Of a stretch of 10,230 nucleotides of DNA, positions 1-6,216 are shown piece after piece (within the stretch, counting starts at the first letter, position 1; every line of letters starts with the position of its first letter). The stretch comes from a virus. Made by a program: the position numbers and the translations under genes. The notes below the pieces were generated by a model, which made no database searches, was not told the origin of the DNA, and saw nothing but the letters and a program-made list of their open reading frames with translations. The stretch lies in the UHGV virus genome UHGV-0083157. One strand, 5' to 3'.

Positions 1-66
1 TAGTTTATATGGTTAAAATTCGAGTTTTGCAAACTTGGGAACTGAGTTCAATTCTCAGTGACTCCA
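1..66 (+). tRNA. tRNA-Ala (anticodon TGC), 5' end truncated by window edge (window starts at about tRNA position 8)
   Basis: Manual fold: D-stem 3-6/16-19, anticodon stem 21-25/33-37, loop TTTGCAA (26-32), T-arm CTGAG-TTCAATT-CTCAG (42-58), 3' acceptor strand 59-65 with T at position 70 (consistent with G3:U70 Ala identity), discriminator A66, encoded CCA 67-69. Confidence 0.7.
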
Positions 67-75
67 CCAATTAGT

Positions 76-147
76 GCATCCATAGTTTAAACGGGAAAAT
101 TACAGTCTTCCAAACTGATGTTGAGGGTTCGATTCCCTCTGGATGCT
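76..147 (+). tRNA. tRNA-Gly (anticodon TCC)
   Basis: Acceptor GCATCCA (76-82) pairs perfectly with TGGATGC (140-146); T-arm GAGGG-TTCGATT-CCCTC (123-139); anticodon loop CTTCCAA (107-113); discriminator T147; CCA 148-150. D-arm pairing is weak. Confidence 0.62.
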
Positions 148-156
148 CCAAATAAT

Positions 157-230
157 GCTGCTTTCGTATAATTGGCTATTGCACATCCCTTGTAAGGATG
201 GAGATGCAGGTTCGAGTCCTGTGAGCAGCA
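157..230 (+). tRNA. tRNA-Thr (anticodon TGT)
   Basis: Acceptor GCTGCTT (157-163) pairs with GAGCAGC (223-229); anticodon stem CATCC/GGATG perfect (184-188/196-200), loop CTTGTAA (189-195); T-arm GCAGG-TTCGAGT-CCTGT (206-222); discriminator A230; CCA 231-233. Confidence 0.7.
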
Positions 231-329
231 CCAATTTTGAGGTCAAGTGAAAGACCGCTTGAGTCAACTGAAGACCGTAACAAATTCCACGGAGTTGAGT
301 TAGCGGCACAACTTCAGACTTCTTTTCAT

Positions 330-401
330 ACTCGCTTAGTTTATATGGTAAAGCCCCATCCTTACAAGTTGGTGAAGAAGGTTCAAGTCCTTCAGCGAGT
401 A
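330..401 (+). tRNA. tRNA-Val (anticodon TAC)
   Basis: Acceptor ACTCGCT (330-336) pairs with AGCGAGT (394-400); TA at positions 8-9; D-stem GTTT/AAGC; anticodon loop CTTACAA (361-367); T-arm GAAGG-TTCAAGT-CCTTC (377-393); discriminator A401; CCA 402-404. Confidence 0.62.
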
Positions 402-406
402 CCAAT

Positions 407-481
407 GTTCCAGTATCCCAATTGGCAGAGGATGCAAGCTCAAACCTTGTATTAGTGACGGTTCGAATCCGTCTTGGAACA
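407..481 (+). tRNA. tRNA-Leu-like (anticodon CAA), short variable region (type-I-like)
   Basis: Acceptor GTTCCAG (407-413) pairs with TTGGAAC (474-480); D-arm TCC-CAATTGGCAGA-GGA (3-bp stem, large loop); anticodon stem GCAAG/CTTGT (434-438/446-450), loop CTCAAAC (439-445); T-arm GACGG-TTCGAAT-CCGTC (457-473); discriminator A481 (matches Leu identity A73); CCA 482-484. Variable region only about 6 nt. Confidence 0.58.
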
Positions 482-489
482 CCAATTTT

Positions 490-494
490 AGGAG
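490..494 (+). promoter_or_regulatory. Shine-Dalgarno AGGAG for ORF 501-713
   Basis: AGGAG at 490-494, 6-nt spacer, ATG at 501. Confidence 0.4.
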
Positions 495-500
495 ATTCCT

Positions 501-713
501 ATGAAGCCTTATGGTAGACACGGTAAAGTTGAAATTGCAAGTTGTGGTTGCTGTGCTTCTCACGATGGTGAAGAAGATTACTACAAGTGGCGTATAGACC
601 ATCGTAGACGCTTTCTCAGAAGAGATAAGAAGAGAGCTAGACAGGAATCTCAAAAGAACATTGCAGAATTAGTTCAAATGGATAGAGCAGCAACCTACGA
701 AGTTGTTTGTTAG
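501..713 (+). CDS. Hypothetical small basic protein (70 aa, Cys-x-Cys-Cys motif, Arg/Lys-rich); 3' end overlaps tRNA-Arg
   Basis: ATG with strong SD at optimal spacing; open frame to TAG 711-713. The last ~50 nt of coding sequence coincide with tRNA-Arg (663-736), so this may be spurious. No recognisable domain. Confidence 0.35.
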   Translation: MKPYGRHGKVEIASCGCCASHDGEEDYYKWRIDHRRRFLRRDKKRARQESQKNIAELVQMDRAATYEVVC

Positions 714-736
714 GGGTTCGAATCCCTTATTCTGCA
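663..736 (+). tRNA. tRNA-Arg (anticodon ACG)
   Basis: Acceptor GCAGAAT (663-669) pairs perfectly with ATTCTGC (729-735); TA 670-671; D-arm GTTC-AAATGGATA-GAGC; anticodon stem GCAAC/GTTGT (690-694/702-706), loop CTACGAA (695-701); T-arm AGGGG-TTCGAAT-CCCTT (712-728); discriminator A736; CCA 737-739. Confidence 0.75.
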
Positions 737-758
737 CCAATTTAAAGAGGCTATTTAA

Positions 759-1316
759 ATGAGATATTTGAAGTATGCTTCATGGATTTTCCTAGCTTTG
801 CTAGAGCCATTTGCAGCAATCTTAGCAGTAATCTTAGCACCCTTTGTGGTTCCATTCTACAGTGAGAAGAAAGGTCACCTGCCTTTTGGATTCAGATGGA
901 TGGAAACTTATGACAACCAGATTGACGGTGACAAAGGTCACGTTGAACGATGGGCTAAGATTCGAAAGATTGGTAAGCTCGGTGTTTATATGCAGAGAGT
1001 TGGATGGCTCTGGAGAAACAAAGCTTATAACTTCTCTTACCATGTATTAGGAAGAGATGTAAAAGATGTTACTAAGTGGAAAGGTAATATCAACGTAAGT
1101 TCTAACCCTGAAGATAATCAGACAGGTTATCTACTGATGTGGAACAGTAATGCTTGGGGATTATTCGCTTTTATCCCATCAATTAAAGTCTTTGGTAAAC
1201 AGTTTTACTGGAGAATTTATGTTGGTTGGAAGCTTAAAAGTGTTGTCCCAGAAGAAAGAGCATTCTCAAGGGAAAGAATTATGTTGGCATTCTTTATTCA
1301 TCCACTAAGAAAGTAA
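759..1316 (+). CDS. Hypothetical membrane protein (185 aa; N-terminal hydrophobic segment, Trp/Tyr/Lys-rich remainder)
   Basis: ATG 759 preceded by AAGAGG (745-750, 8-nt spacer); uninterrupted frame to TAA 1314-1316; N-terminal stretch WIFLALLEPFAAILAVILAPFVVPF is a predicted TM helix. Embedded between tRNA-Arg and tRNA-Gln with 8 nt to the next tRNA. Confidence 0.6.
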   Translation: MRYLKYASWIFLALLEPFAAILAVILAPFVVPFYSEKKGHLPFGFRWMETYDNQIDGDKGHVERWAKIRKIGKLGVYMQRVGWLWRNKAYNFSYHVLGRDVKDVTKWKGNINVSSNPEDNQTGYLLMWNSNAWGLFAFIPSIKVFGKQFYWRIYVGWKLKSVVPEERAFSRERIMLAFFIHPLRK

Positions 1317-1324
1317 AGATTTAA

Positions 1325-1397
1325 AGGGGATTAGTTTACAAGGTTAAAACCTCGGTCTTTGAAATCGAAGAAGTTGGTTCAATTCCAACATCCCCCG
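1325..1397 (+). tRNA. tRNA-Gln (anticodon TTG)
   Basis: TA 1332-1333; D-stem GTTT/AAAC perfect; anticodon stem TCGGT/ATCGA (1352-1356/1364-1368), loop CTTTGAA (1357-1363); T-arm GTTGG-TTCAATT-CCAAC (1373-1389); 3' acceptor ATCCCCC (1390-1396); discriminator G1397 (Gln identity G73); CCA 1398-1400. The 1:72 pair is A/C, a weak first pair. Confidence 0.62.
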
Positions 1398-1402
1398 CCA
1401 AT

Positions 1403-1478
1403 GCTCCATTACTCCAATTGGCAGAGAGGCCAGACTTAAAATCTGTGTTATGTATCGGTTCGAATCCGATATGGAGTA
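1403..1478 (+). tRNA. tRNA-Leu-like (anticodon TAA), short variable region (type-I-like)
   Basis: Acceptor GCTCCAT (1403-1409) pairs with ATGGAGT (1471-1477); D-arm CTC-CAATTGGCAGA-GAG (same architecture as the 407-481 tRNA); anticodon loop CTTAAAA (1435-1441); T-arm ATCGG-TTCGAAT-CCGAT (1454-1470); discriminator A1478; CCA 1479-1481. Variable region about 7 nt. Confidence 0.58.
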
Positions 1479-1488
1479 CCAAATTAAT

Positions 1489-1561
1489 AGCAGTGTAGCA
1501 TAACTGGCAATGCTCCAGCCTCTGAAGCTGAAAGATTAAGGTTCAAATCCTTACGCTGCTG
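1489..1561 (+). tRNA. tRNA-Gln (anticodon CTG)
   Basis: Acceptor AGCAGTG (1489-1495) pairs with CGCTGCT (1554-1560); D-stem GCAT/ATGC perfect; anticodon loop CTCTGAA (1520-1526); T-arm TAAGG-TTCAAAT-CCTTA (1537-1553); discriminator G1561; CCA 1562-1564. Confidence 0.62.
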
Positions 1562-1595
1562 CCACTTCTAAGGGTTCTTACGAGAGTCCTTACAT

Positions 1596-1669
1596 GTGGC
1601 CTTATCATAAATGGATAATGACCCATGCTGTGAACATGGTCTATATGGGTTCGATTCCCGTAGGTCACC
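1596..1669 (+). tRNA. tRNA-His (anticodon GTG)
   Basis: Acceptor GTGGCCT (1596-1602) pairs with AGGTCAC (1662-1668); D-stem TCAT/ATGA perfect; anticodon stem CCATG/CATGG perfect (1623-1627/1635-1639), loop CTGTGAA (1628-1634); T-arm ATGGG-TTCGATT-CCCGT; discriminator C1669 (His identity C73); CCA 1670-1672. The -1 position is T, so no encoded G-1. Confidence 0.75.
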
Positions 1670-1680
1670 CCAAATTTAAT

Positions 1681-1753
1681 GGGTTAAGTAGCTTATATGG
1701 TTAAAGCGCGTGTCTGAAAAACATGAGAAGAGGGTTCAAATCCCACTAACCCG
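1681..1753 (+). tRNA. tRNA-Phe (anticodon GAA), irregular acceptor/T-arm geometry
   Basis: D-arm GCTT-ATATGGTTA-AAGC (1691-1707); anticodon stem CGTGT/ACATG (1709-1713/1721-1725), loop CTGAAAA (1714-1720); T-loop TTCAAAT (1735-1741); acceptor GGGTTA(A) pairs with (C)TAACCC; CCA 1754-1756. One extra nucleotide near positions 8-9 or a mismatched T-stem pair, so boundaries are +/-1 nt. Confidence 0.55.
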
Positions 1754-1773
1754 CCAATTTCAAAAGGTGCTTA

Positions 1774-2508
1774 ATGAAAGAGATGACAGAACAAGGTAAA
1801 GGGATTTTCAATCTCCTGAAATCCGGTAACGGGTTTTCTAACCCTCTTATTACCGGTGCAGCAATCCTTGGTGGCACAATTGCTGCTTCTACTTCATTAG
1901 TAAGCTCTCTTAGCTCGGTATCAGACCCTACTGTACAAGATAAGCTTATTGCGGCTGGTTTAACAGTAGCACTATTAAGTAGCTTTACAACAAGTCTGGG
2001 AAGCACAACCTCAACAACCAATACACTGACCAAATATGGACAGAAGTCTGTAGATGAGTTTTCACAGCGTATGCAAGTAGCTAAAGGTTACTCTAACGTT
2101 ATGGGAGCAGCAGGTGAACAGGTTGGTTGTACTCCATTTAGTGGAATCATGGGAGTTGCTACTGAGTACGGTAACAAAGCAATGGAACTGATTAACACCT
2201 CTTTAGATGCTGTGAATGACGTTCTAAGCGATTTACAAGATGCAATTGACCAAGGACTAGCAACCATCGAAGAACTCGCCTCACAAGCCGTTACAGCGAT
2301 TAATCAGGGCATTGCTAAGATTACTGCATATGCTAATGAGGTCACTCAGATGATTGCAGATGAAGCAGCGTTAATTGCTGATTACTTGAAAACGAATATT
2401 AATGGTTTCCTTGCAGGTGTCTTACCAGACTGGTTTGATGATGCTTGTAAAACTGGCGTGATTGATTCAATCGCAACTCCAGAAATGAAGGATGCCTTGA
2501 ACAAATAA
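1774..2508 (+). CDS. Hypothetical protein (244 aa; Ser/Thr/Ala/Gly-rich low-complexity N-terminal half with a hydrophobic segment, acidic helical C-terminal half)
   Basis: ATG 1774 with AAAGG/AAGGTG upstream (1763-1769); open frame to TAA 2506-2508; sits 17 nt after the CCA of tRNA-Phe and 2 nt before tRNA-Ser. No recognisable catalytic motif. Confidence 0.6.
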   Translation: MKEMTEQGKGIFNLLKSGNGFSNPLITGAAILGGTIAASTSLVSSLSSVSDPTVQDKLIAAGLTVALLSSFTTSLGSTTSTTNTLTKYGQKSVDEFSQRMQVAKGYSNVMGAAGEQVGCTPFSGIMGVATEYGNKAMELINTSLDAVNDVLSDLQDAIDQGLATIEELASQAVTAINQGIAKITAYANEVTQMIADEAALIADYLKTNINGFLAGVLPDWFDDACKTGVIDSIATPEMKDALNK

Positions 2509-2510
2509 TT

Positions 2511-2600
2511 GGAAGATTAACCCTAAAAGGTAAGGGAACAGTTTGCTAAACTGTCAGTAACCGAGAAATCGGCGTACCAGTTCAAGTCTGGTATCTTCCT
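2511..2600 (+). tRNA. tRNA-Ser (anticodon GCT), type II with long variable arm
   Basis: Acceptor GGAAGAT (2511-2517) is the perfect complement of ATCTTCC (2593-2599); anticodon stem ACAGT/ACTGT perfect (2538-2542/2550-2554), loop TTGCTAA (2543-2549); long variable arm with CCGA-GAAA-TCGG stem (2555-2575); T-arm ACCAG-TTCAAGT-CTGGT; discriminator T2600; CCA 2601-2603. Confidence 0.8.
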
Positions 2601-2610
2601 CCAATTTAAT

Positions 2611-2683
2611 GCGTCGATGACAGAAATGGCTATGTGCCTGTCTGCAAAACAGGATTATGAGGGTTCGACTCCCTTTCGACGCT
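2611..2683 (+). tRNA. tRNA-Cys (anticodon GCA)
   Basis: Acceptor GCGTCGA (2611-2617) is the perfect complement of TCGACGC (2676-2682); anticodon stem CCTGT/ACAGG perfect (2637-2641/2649-2653), loop CTGCAAA (2642-2648); T-arm GAGGG-TTCGACT-CCCTT; discriminator T2683 (Cys identity U73); CCA 2684-2686. Confidence 0.8.
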
Positions 2684-2721
2684 CCAAATTATTTTACTCT
2701 CTCTCAAAATAAAATAATAAC

Positions 2722-4749: not shown

Positions 4750-6216
4750 ATGGCAGAAATTACAGAAACACAAGAAAACCTACCTCCATTCAGAATGGGT
4801 GAGGTTGGGAGCCTTGGTTTAAAGGTTCGTAATGGAAGAATCTACGAAGAACCTAGACAAGCTTTAAGATTCCCAGAAAGTATTAAAACTTTCCAACTAA
4901 TGATGCGTGACCCCGCTGTAGCGGCATCTGTAAACATTATTAAGATGTTTGTTAGAAAAGTCAACTGGAGATTTGTTCCTCCGAAGGGAAAAGAACAAGA
5001 CCCTAAGATGATTGAACGGGCAGACTTCTTTAACTCTCTGATGGATGACATGGAGCATGATTGGGCTGACTTTATTAACTCTGTAATGTCATTCTGTACT
5101 TACGGATTCTGCGTGAATGAGAAAGTTTACAAGAAGCGTCAGGGTAATAAAGGGAAATACCCTTCAAGATATAATGATGGTTTAATTGGTTGGGCTAAAC
5201 TCCCTATCAGAAACCAGTCAACTCTTGATAAATGGTATTTTGATTCAGACTATCGAAAAGTAACAGGTGTTAGACAGAATCTGAGAAACGTTTCACACAT
5301 TGCTGGAGCTATTAATCTGGCTGAACAGCCACTAACAAGAAAACTTCCAAGAAGTAAATTCTTGCTGTTCAAATATGATGATGAGTACGGTAACCCAGAA
5401 GGTCGTTCACCATTACTTAATGCTTATGTACCTTGGAAATATAAAGTCCAAATTGAAGAGTACGAAGCAGTTGGTGTTTCCAGAGACTTAGTAGGTATGC
5501 CAAAGATTGGTTTACCACCTGATTATCTGGATGAGAATGCTGAACCTGAAAAGAAAGCTTTCGTAGAATACTGCAAATCTGTAGTTAATGATATGATTGC
5601 AAATGACCGAGCAGGTTTAATCTGGCCTAGATTCATCGACCCAGAAACTAAAGAGGATATCTTTGAGTTCTCATTAGTATCTAGACAGGGTGCAAAGGCT
5701 TACGATACCGGAGCTATCATTGACCGTTATTCTAAGCAGATTATGATGGCGTTTATGTCAGACGTTCTTGCAATGGGTCAGTCAAAATATGGTTCATTCT
5801 CTTTAGCAGATTCTAAGACAAGTTTACTTGCAATGTCTGTAGATATTCTTCTGAAACAAATCAGAAACGTAATTAACCGTGACCTAGTAGCACAGACTTA
5901 CGCTCTGAATATGTGGGATGATGAAGAACACGTTCAAATCGTTTATGACGACATTGAAACTCCAGACCTTGAAGCTATTGGTGCTTACATTCAGAAGACC
6001 GTTGCAGTTGGTGCTATGGAAGTTGATAAGGAACTGTCTAACAAGCTTAGAGAACACATTGGATTACCACCTGCTGATGAGTCTCAACCTGTGTCTGAAG
6101 AATTATCTCCTAACACTCAAAGTCGTTCAGGTGATGGTTATAAGACTGCCGGAGAGGGAACTGCGAAGACCCCTTCAGCAAAAGACCCAAGTACAGCGAA
6201 TAAGGCAAATAAATAA
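4750..6216 (+). CDS. Portal protein (putative; 488 aa from ATG 4750; ORF track uses GTG 4741)
   Basis: Follows TerL directly; AGGTGA SD 5 nt upstream of ATG 4750; size about 490 aa with acidic/low-complexity C-terminal tail; position between terminase and prohead protease. No direct homology check was possible. Confidence 0.65.
   Translation: MAEITETQENLPPFRMGEVGSLGLKVRNGRIYEEPRQALRFPESIKTFQLMMRDPAVAASVNIIKMFVRKVNWRFVPPKGKEQDPKMIERADFFNSLMDDMEHDWADFINSVMSFCTYGFCVNEKVYKKRQGNKGKYPSRYNDGLIGWAKLPIRNQSTLDKWYFDSDYRKVTGVRQNLRNVSHIAGAINLAEQPLTRKLPRSKFLLFKYDDEYGNPEGRSPLLNAYVPWKYKVQIEEYEAVGVSRDLVGMPKIGLPPDYLDENAEPEKKAFVEYCKSVVNDMIANDRAGLIWPRFIDPETKEDIFEFSLVSRQGAKAYDTGAIIDRYSKQIMMAFMSDVLAMGQSKYGSFSLADSKTSLLAMSVDILLKQIRNVINRDLVAQTYALNMWDDEEHVQIVYDDIETPDLEAIGAYIQKTVAVGAMEVDKELSNKLREHIGLPPADESQPVSEELSPNTQSRSGDGYKTAGEGTAKTPSAKDPSTANKANK

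Follow-up and report, generated by a model that had tools for sequence, protein, structure and literature searches.

Type-I tRNALeu genes lacking the long variable arm in the tRNA cluster of a Felix O1-like phage, probably serving as leucine isoacceptors for UUR codons

The stretch of DNA analysed here (the window, 10,230 nt of the virus genome UHGV-0083157) comes from a Felix O1-like myovirus (Ounavirinae) and runs from the distal part of a tRNA cluster into the first part of the head-morphogenesis module, and two of its tRNA genes, with the leucine anticodons CAA and UAA, fold without the long variable arm by which tRNALeu is usually recognised as a class II tRNA. The first 3 kb are 95-96% identical to the Escherichia phages EcSzw-2 and SUSP2 (Suspvirus), about 290 phage records match, and the open reading frames (ORFs) downstream of the cluster encode the large terminase, portal, head protease and major head protein. 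ARAGORN recognised 12 tRNA genes on the + strand, every one with an encoded CCA, in the order Gly, Thr, Val, Leu(CAA), Arg, Gln, Leu(UAA), Gln, His, Phe, Ser and Cys, with intergenic spacers down to 2 nt (Val-Leu and Gln-Leu). The same 12 genes were returned by Rfam, together with the 3′ portion of a thirteenth that is truncated by the window edge.

Both Leu genes belong to the Rfam tRNA family RF00005 (gathering score 29), with 44.0 bits and an E-value of 7e-7 for Leu(CAA) at 407-481 and 47.5 bits and 8e-8 for Leu(UAA) at 1403-1478, and both show the cloverleaf, a 7-nt anticodon loop with U33 and a T-loop of the form TTCRANY. Their structure was taken from ARAGORN cloverleaves and from a position-by-position parse of the sequence, which agree with each other. 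Each gene has a 7-bp acceptor stem, U8, A9, a 3-bp D-stem enclosing the 11-nt D-loop CAATTGGCAGA, a 5-bp T-stem with the T-loop TTCGAAT, and A73 (Table 1). The coordinates, lengths, D-arm and discriminator base that the initial annotation had given for two short Leu tRNAs are thus borne out, and although that reading had allowed for a misfolded long arm or a different anticodon loop, ARAGORN folding produced neither.

Table 1. The two leucine tRNA genes, their main parts and the comparator tRNA gene, in window coordinates
Feature	Position	Strand	Description	Basis
tRNA cluster	76..2686	+	holds both Leu genes	ARAGORN; gene order as in SUSP2, Sf14 and Si3
tRNA-Leu(CAA)	407..484	+	type I, 75 nt plus CCA (482-484); anticodon 441-443; A73 at 481	ARAGORN, Rfam
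D-arm of Leu(CAA)	416..432	+	TCC/GGA, C13, loop AATTGGCAG, A22; carries A14, A15, G18G19 and A20a	parse
variable region of Leu(CAA)	451..456	+	ATTAGT, 6 nt, helix-less; last U is U48, pairing with A15	ARAGORN, parse
tRNA-Leu(UAA)	1403..1481	+	type I, 76 nt plus CCA (1479-1481); anticodon 1437-1439; A73 at 1478	ARAGORN, Rfam
D-arm of Leu(UAA)	1412..1428	+	CTC/GAG, C13, loop AATTGGCAG, A22	parse, alignment
variable region of Leu(UAA)	1447..1453	+	GTTATGT, 7 nt, helix-less; U48 at the end	ARAGORN, parse, alignment
tRNA-Ser(GCT)	2511..2603	+	conventional type II, 93 nt, 4-bp extra arm; comparator from the same operon	ARAGORN, Rfam

The hallmark of class II, a variable arm of more than 10 nt that forms a stem-loop, is absent from both Leu genes and present in tRNA-Ser(GCT), and since the arm of the latter was detected in the same operon, the missing Leu arm is not an artefact of the tools. 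The variable region is short and unpaired as in class I, yet it measures 6-7 nt where 4-5 nt is canonical, and the 4-bp D-stem closed by a 13-22 pair that marks class I is lacking, as C13 stands opposite A22 and the D-stem has 3 bp, which makes the D-arm class-II-like. As a separate observation, the anticodon loop of Leu(CAA) (439-445) reads CUCAAAC versus UUCAAAA in E. coli leuX, the differences lying at C32 and C38. According to a review, TrmL needs an A36-A37-A38 motif plus prior i6A37; owing to C38, Leu(CAA) is without this motif and may be modified differently from the host tRNALeu(CAA), while Leu(UAA) retains it.

End-to-end alignment places both genes collinear with E. coli leuZ and leuX and with the tRNALeu of phages T4 and T5, and the sole gap, of 8-10 columns (9 for Leu(CAA)), falls exactly at the extra-arm hairpin. 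The positions A14, G18, G19, A20a, A22, U33, A35, A37, U48, G53-U54-U55-C56, A58, C61 and A73 are invariant throughout, and the D-loop reads CAATTGGCAGA here versus GAATCGGTAGA in leuZ. The window genes therefore have in common with these class II tRNAs the 3-bp D-stem, the 11-nt loop with A14, A15, G18, G19 and A20a, U48, the T-loop, A73 and the anticodons, and differ from them in the variable region (6-7 unpaired nt versus a 13-16-nt arm), in the total length of 85-87 nt in class II, and in the tertiary core, where G9, G12-C23 and R13 of type II are replaced by A9, C12-G23 and C13.

The retained nucleotides are those on which leucine identity depends in the host. The E. coli leucyl-tRNA synthetase (LeuRS) reads A73, the A15-U48 Levitt pair, G18G19, A20a and the tertiary pairs between D- and T-loops, with U8-A14 also listed, whereas neither the anticodon nor the long arm is a determinant and truncated tRNALeu without the arm remains active (PMC9976931). 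In both genes we found A73, U8-A14, A15-U48, G18G19, A20a, the 11-nt D-loop on its 3-bp stem and the T-loop partners U54, U55, C56 and A58. Since LeuRS reads neither anticodon nor long arm, the host enzyme should charge these arm-less tRNAs. No LeuRS is encoded in this phage family, so charging by a phage enzyme was rejected and the task must fall to the host enzyme.

The initial annotation had also suggested that the true identity might differ from what the anticodon implies. A rival reading along these lines has the tRNAs charged with another amino acid, or acting uncharged as a decoy, regulator or primer. The architecture is certainly atypical for Leu, E. coli LeuRS failed on one bacterial type-I tRNALeu (PMC6614811), and for 13 other tRNA species (14 genes) of phage Sf14 the tRNAscan-SE isotype scores disagree with the anticodon. 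For the two Leu genes of Sf14, however, which are identical to those of the window at 78/78 positions for Leu(CAA) and 78/79 for Leu(UAA), the isotype comparison that had been proposed as a check is already published: tRNAscan-SE 2.0 places Leu on top for both, with 49.1 for Leu_CAA (Lys next, 36.1) and 60.2 for Leu_TAA (Lys next, 54.2); the Sf14 paper is silent on the variable arm. The LeuRS determinants are moreover all present, and invariant across 116 viral relatives (described below), and the cloverleaf covariation, the encoded CCA and the canonical T-loop fit a translating tRNA.

Elimination leads to the same answer. Most other E. coli synthetases read the anticodon, while SerRS relies on the long arm and AlaRS on G3-U70; both features are absent from the parsed sequences of the window Leu genes, so these anticodon-independent exceptions do not fit, and leucine is left. 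The codons agree, as in Kolesnikvirus orthologues (32-69% amino acid identity) Leu occupies the aligned position for 27 of the 36 TTA codons from five window ORFs, 18 of these 27 being CTN there, and the non-Leu remainder is mostly Met or Ile; for TTG the sample is smaller and 4 of 11 align with Leu. Recoding of UUR was rejected on this ground, because TTA positions interchange with Leu CTN codons between orthologues. TTA is the top Leu codon of the window ORFs (27%, with TTG at 10%), and the Sf14 study found TTA significantly over-used relative to Shigella; insertion of a wrong residue at 37% of the Leu codons would do severe harm. Leucine identity thus appears well supported by sequence, and we regard a different or absent amino acid as highly improbable.

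The design is shared well beyond the window. Across about 160 Ounavirinae records Leu(CAA) is 100% identical, and it can still be recognised in the Ounavirinae of Erwinia and Cronobacter. ARAGORN was re-run on the whole clusters of SUSP2, Si3, Hena2 and phi63_307, in which every tRNA-Leu proved to be type I, with 74-76 nt before CCA, for the isoacceptors CAA, UAA and UAG in Suspvirus/Felixounavirus and CAA, AAG and UAA in Kolesnikvirus. The tRNA-Ser of these genomes measures 87-93 nt and their tRNA-Tyr 83-88 nt (ARAGORN lengths, with encoded CCA counted where present). The arm-less Leu is hence a subfamily-wide trait, while Ser and Tyr keep their long arms, and what had been described as an oddity of two genes extends to all Ounavirinae Leu isoacceptors and, as shown below, recurs in many unrelated viral contigs. 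Compared with its Kolesnikvirus orthologue, the Leu(CAA) of the window differs on both sides of four of its seven acceptor pairs with all pairing kept, and compensated changes are also seen in the anticodon stem (A30-U40 to G30-C40) and the T-stem, indicating that the genes are under selection as cloverleaf tRNAs. Outside the subfamily, the unrelated Enterococcus herellevirus EFGrKN has a 74-nt tRNA-Leu(UAG) that shares the D-arm sequence, UAUCCCAAUUGGCAGAGGA, whereas in the classical coliphages T4 and T5 tRNALeu is of the conventional kind, with 87 and 85 nt. A search of 5,426 E. coli genomes with either gene gave no match, hence no host or prophage source for comparison.

Two variants of the Ounavirinae Leu genes deserve mention on their own. 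Salmonella phage Si3 carries at 5124-5202 a chimeric tRNA-Leu, derived from Leu(CAA) in its 5′ part up to the D-arm and from Leu(UAA) beyond it, while about 1 kb between the paralogues (Arg, an ORF and Gln) is missing; its acceptor stem holds two G-U pairs and one mismatch, and the arrangement points to a deletion by recombination within the identical D-arm sequence of the Leu paralogues. Kolesnikvirus (Erwinia phage Hena2, 7531-7608, and one further record) has a type-I Leu with the anticodon AAG, thus A34, and a 12-nt D-loop, and four more viral type-I Leu genes in our survey are likewise AAG. A34 in E. coli is otherwise known in tRNAArg(ACG) alone, where it is deaminated to inosine.

For the survey of phages and cells, viral contigs and one-genome-per-species bacterial and archaeal contigs were scanned with the pattern AATTGGYARA, 9 N, YTNAR, 7 N, a gap, and GTTCRANTC. 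The frequencies come from scans that accepted either arm length, and because the matches were listed in scan order and rest on one D-loop/T-loop pattern, they are samples, not censuses; a viral scan restricted to short gaps is biased by design and was used for sequence statistics alone. Among the matches listed, type I accounts for 24 of 125 viral versus 3 of 119 cellular tRNA-Leu (Fisher p = 2e-5), so that the earlier statement that tRNA-Leu is type II in bacteria and in most phages holds for about 97% of the cellular and about 80% of the viral genes listed, as well as for T4 (87 nt) and T5 (85 nt). When all ARAGORN Leu genes in the viral sample of listed matches are counted, 40 of 180 are short, and these always stand in company: 36 are clustered (at least 3 other tRNAs within 2 kb), 4 have 1-2 neighbours and none is solitary. 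Inside such clusters the short fraction is 36 of 120 Leu genes, and in the same sample short Ser amounts to 0/51 and short Tyr to 2/22.

The short-gap scan yielded at least 116 distinct viral type-I Leu sequences, in all of which (116/116) U8, U48 and A73 are present even though the search pattern left them unconstrained. Every stem position is paired in 93-100% of the set, with 2-6 pair types except at the invariant G53-C61, the pairing percentages being partly enforced by the filter that defined the set (at least 6/7 acceptor, 4/5 anticodon and 4/5 T-stem pairs). The variable region counts 5 nt in 92, 6 nt in 19 and 7 nt in 5 sequences. Position 9 is A or G versus G in type II, the 12-23 pair is mostly C-G versus G-C, and position 13 is mostly C versus a purine, which suggests that the tertiary core was remodelled along with the loss of the arm. 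In a nearest-neighbour analysis, which bears on whether the class arose once or many times, 76% of type-I sequences have a type-I nearest neighbour, but mean identity within type I (0.53) is close to that between the classes (0.51).

The three cellular type-I matches among those listed come from Gordonia and Herbiconiux (Actinobacteria) and one Planctomycetota metagenome-assembled genome (MAG), all with the CCCAATTGGCAGAGG D-arm. The Gordonia (491-566) and Herbiconiux (2732-2806) genes are solitary tRNA-Leu(UAA), while the MAG contig (locus 3550-3794) has three type-I Leu genes in tandem and, in addition, a Tyr gene, and may itself be viral, either phage or prophage. The anticodon CAA is strongly enriched in type I, with 44 of 116 type-I versus 10 of 98 type-II viral tRNALeu among the matches listed, and it is also the anticodon of the Streptomyces type-I tRNALeu, the sole characterised bacterial case. 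Rare short tRNAs with other class II anticodons occur on viral contigs as well (L149 10786-10857, L177 3816-3893 and L033 7294-7365), namely two tRNA-Tyr(GTA) of 72 and 75 nt and one 72-nt 'tRNA-Ser(GGA)', which could be real arm-less genes, tRNAs remoulded from another isotype, or miscalls.

Taken together, we consider both genes to be probably functional tRNALeu isoacceptors that decode UUR and are charged by the host LeuRS. Ordinary class II tRNALeu ancestors would have lost the extra-arm hairpin while retaining a class-II-type D-arm and all the nucleotides recognised by E. coli LeuRS; the host enzyme would then charge the arm-less tRNAs with leucine, and the charged tRNAs would decode UUG (CAA) and UUA/UUG (UAA). 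E. coli is CUG-biased, and the AT-rich phage uses UUA/UUG far more. SerRS and bacterial TyrRS depend on the long arm and LeuRS does not, which would account for the type-II form that Ser and Tyr retain in these genomes.

Several points weigh against a functional pair of tRNALeu. The anticodon stem of Leu(UAA) (window 1430-1446) has 4 bp and begins with a C27-U43 mismatch (that of Leu(CAA) can be extended by U26-A44), single-sequence folding is weak for both genes, with z of about -1.6 to -1.8 and a minimum free energy (MFE) structure that is not a cloverleaf, and even among type-I tRNAs a variable region of 6-7 nt is out of the ordinary. Loss of the arm is very rare in cells, implying that the arm has some value, and its loss in phages may not be neutral. 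The type-I tRNALeu(CAA) of Streptomyces coelicolor was not charged by E. coli LeuRS in vitro, and the leucine-specific domain of that enzyme is reported to favour large variable loops (PMC6614811).

Low predicted stability, the mismatch in Leu(UAA) and the odd variable-loop lengths are also what would be expected if the genes were decaying pseudogenes, deletion-damaged relics of type-II tRNALeu. For decaying genes, though, the perfect identity of Leu(CAA) across the Ounavirinae records and the compensatory changes out to Kolesnikvirus are hard to reconcile, as are the sharing of one design by all three Leu isoacceptors in every Ounavirinae genus examined, the invariance of identity and tertiary nucleotides in the 116 viral relatives, and Rfam scores well over threshold. 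MFE folding, which did not recover the cloverleaf, was set aside in favour of ARAGORN, Rfam and comparative data, and the weak z-scores fit the remark of the Sf14 study that the tRNAs of Sf14 are less stable than those of the host. We regard decay as scarcely credible.

Charging by the host is the step on which the functional interpretation turns, and the known arm-less tRNALeu offer a guide. That of S. coelicolor likewise has a short unpaired variable loop and the U8-A14 identity element, and it occurs alongside type-II tRNALeu in cells that have just one LeuRS (PMC6614811); two of the three cellular type-I contigs among the matches listed are Actinobacteria, like Streptomyces. It differs in its 5-nt loop (A44-C45-A46-G47-C48), and Streptomyces tRNALeu do not use A73 but are served by an adapted leucine-specific domain in their own LeuRS (PMC6614811), whereas the phage tRNAs are virus-encoded, keep A73 and A15-U48, have loops of 6-7 nt and rely on an unadapted enterobacterial LeuRS. 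Since the Streptomyces tRNA has C48, and so is without at least one E. coli determinant retained by the phage tRNAs, and belongs to an A73-independent system, the negative result may not transfer to the phage tRNAs. The animal mitochondrial tRNALeu(UUR) and tRNALeu(CUN) are type I too and take their identity from A73 and A14 without a long arm (PMC9976931); they work with a dedicated mitochondrial LeuRS, in a separate evolutionary context, and have degenerate D/T loops, unlike the phage genes with their canonical G18G19 and T-loop elements. Minimalist arm-less E. coli tRNALeu, as summarised in PMC9976931 from Larkin et al. (2002) and Asahara et al. (1998), are charged by E. coli LeuRS if A73 and the D/T tertiary pairs are intact. 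In that summary these are engineered constructs assayed in vitro, some of them also without the anticodon arm, and the phage genes resemble a natural version of them. On this basis we think it quite likely that the host LeuRS charges both tRNAs, and the concrete question becomes whether an unmodified enterobacterial LeuRS can charge a natural type-I tRNALeu, given one published negative.

Why the arm was lost is a question to which tolerated loss and selection are both fitting answers. Selection, in line with the link to defence escape that the initial annotation had drawn, would mean that loss was adaptive, making the phage tRNALeu invisible to host or phage-induced effectors that recognise or cut the arm, so that Leu decoding survives inactivation of the host tRNALeu; this is compatible with functional tRNALeu isoacceptors and adds a selective cause to them. 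MenT3 requires the long variable loop of tRNASer, and the abortive-infection toxin AbiEii appears to prefer class II tRNAs. In E. coli tRNATyr the stem of the variable arm is cut by Septu PtuAB and by retron-Eco7, a cut that T5 tRNATyr reportedly withstands owing to its distinctive variable loop (PMC13096335). The viral over cellular enrichment among the listed matches suggests a phage-specific factor, the short phage Leu genes listed there all stand next to other tRNA genes, and the anticodon loop of Leu(CAA) departs from host leuX as noted above. Like the tRNAs known to evade defence (T5 tRNATyr against retron-Eco7/PtuAB, and mycobacteriophage anticodon-loop variants), those of the window have a structure unlike the host isoacceptor.

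In those precedents, however, resistance was shown experimentally, for Tyr, Lys and others, and in T5 tRNATyr the difference lies in a variable loop whose arm is altered, not deleted (PMC13096335). No defence system has been shown to target the tRNALeu arm, and Retron-Kva2, the one anti-phage nuclease that we found to cut tRNALeu, cuts its anticodon loop. Tyr and Ser, the demonstrated targets, keep their arms in these phages. T4 and T5 live on the same hosts with type-II tRNALeu, the enrichment could equally stem from relaxed constraint together with deletion bias in phage genomes, and the Sf14 authors judged nuclease evasion unlikely for their phage group, having examined anticodon loops alone. 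We thus hold adaptive arm loss to be doubtful, and a still broader version, in which arm-less tRNALeu is a widespread phage counter-measure against effectors that recognise long arms (PtuAB-like nucleases, AbiEii/MenT-like nucleotidyltransferases or undescribed systems), to be unlikely. Tolerance accounts for the loss at least as well as escape from defence, and we infer that the arm was lost because it could be spared rather than through specific selection.

The remainder of the cluster adds some further observations. The truncated tRNA at window 1-66 (Rfam 40.1 bits, model positions 8-71) is tRNA-Ala(TGC) by synteny with SUSP2. tRNA-Phe(GAA) at 1681-1756 has an irregular acceptor/T-stem junction, for which ARAGORN gives a 4-bp T-stem with an extra base and Rfam a 2-nt deletion plus mismatches (44.8 bits). 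A candidate 70-aa ORF at 501-713 (+), conserved, assigned to phrog_10765 and without a Pfam match, overlaps the 5′ two-thirds of tRNA-Arg(ACG) (663-739) by 51 nt, its last 16 codons and stop lying inside the tRNA; Kolesnikvirus is without this ORF, and there Leu(AAG) directly adjoins Arg(ACG). Two protein genes also lie inside the cluster, at 759-1316 (DUF7338, 185 aa) and at 1774-2508 (DUF7217, 244 aa), the latter kept in position down to Kolesnikvirus (46% amino acid identity) and annotated in other records as a putative membrane protein. Between the cluster and the packaging genes there is a promoter-like site (2766-2794), and terminator-like hairpins lie 3′ of tRNA-Cys at 2814-2830 and 2847-2864, the second followed by TTTTTT; all of these are consensus matches that do not rise above shuffled sequence.

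Type-I tRNALeu has already been described from animal mitochondria (PMC9976931) and from Streptomyces (PMC6614811), the latter being the sole bacterial exception that we found described. For phages no description of an arm-less tRNALeu was found in the full-text literature, main phage-tRNA and defence papers included, a coverage that leaves out closed-access and older literature. The genes themselves are routinely annotated as tRNA-Leu, and the NCBI annotation marks several tRNAs of the cluster as pseudo or 'tRNA-OTHER'; screening tRNA-Leu by length would overlook arm-less genes. For work on LeuRS and for the engineering of orthogonal tRNAs they offer a minimal substrate of natural origin. Coliphages and Salmonella phages of a well-studied group, therapeutic and typing phages among them, encode exclusively arm-less tRNALeu, a design shared by about one fifth of the viral tRNALeu among the matches listed, and if the loss of the arm was selected, it would point to an unexplored class of defence acting on the arms of class II tRNAs.

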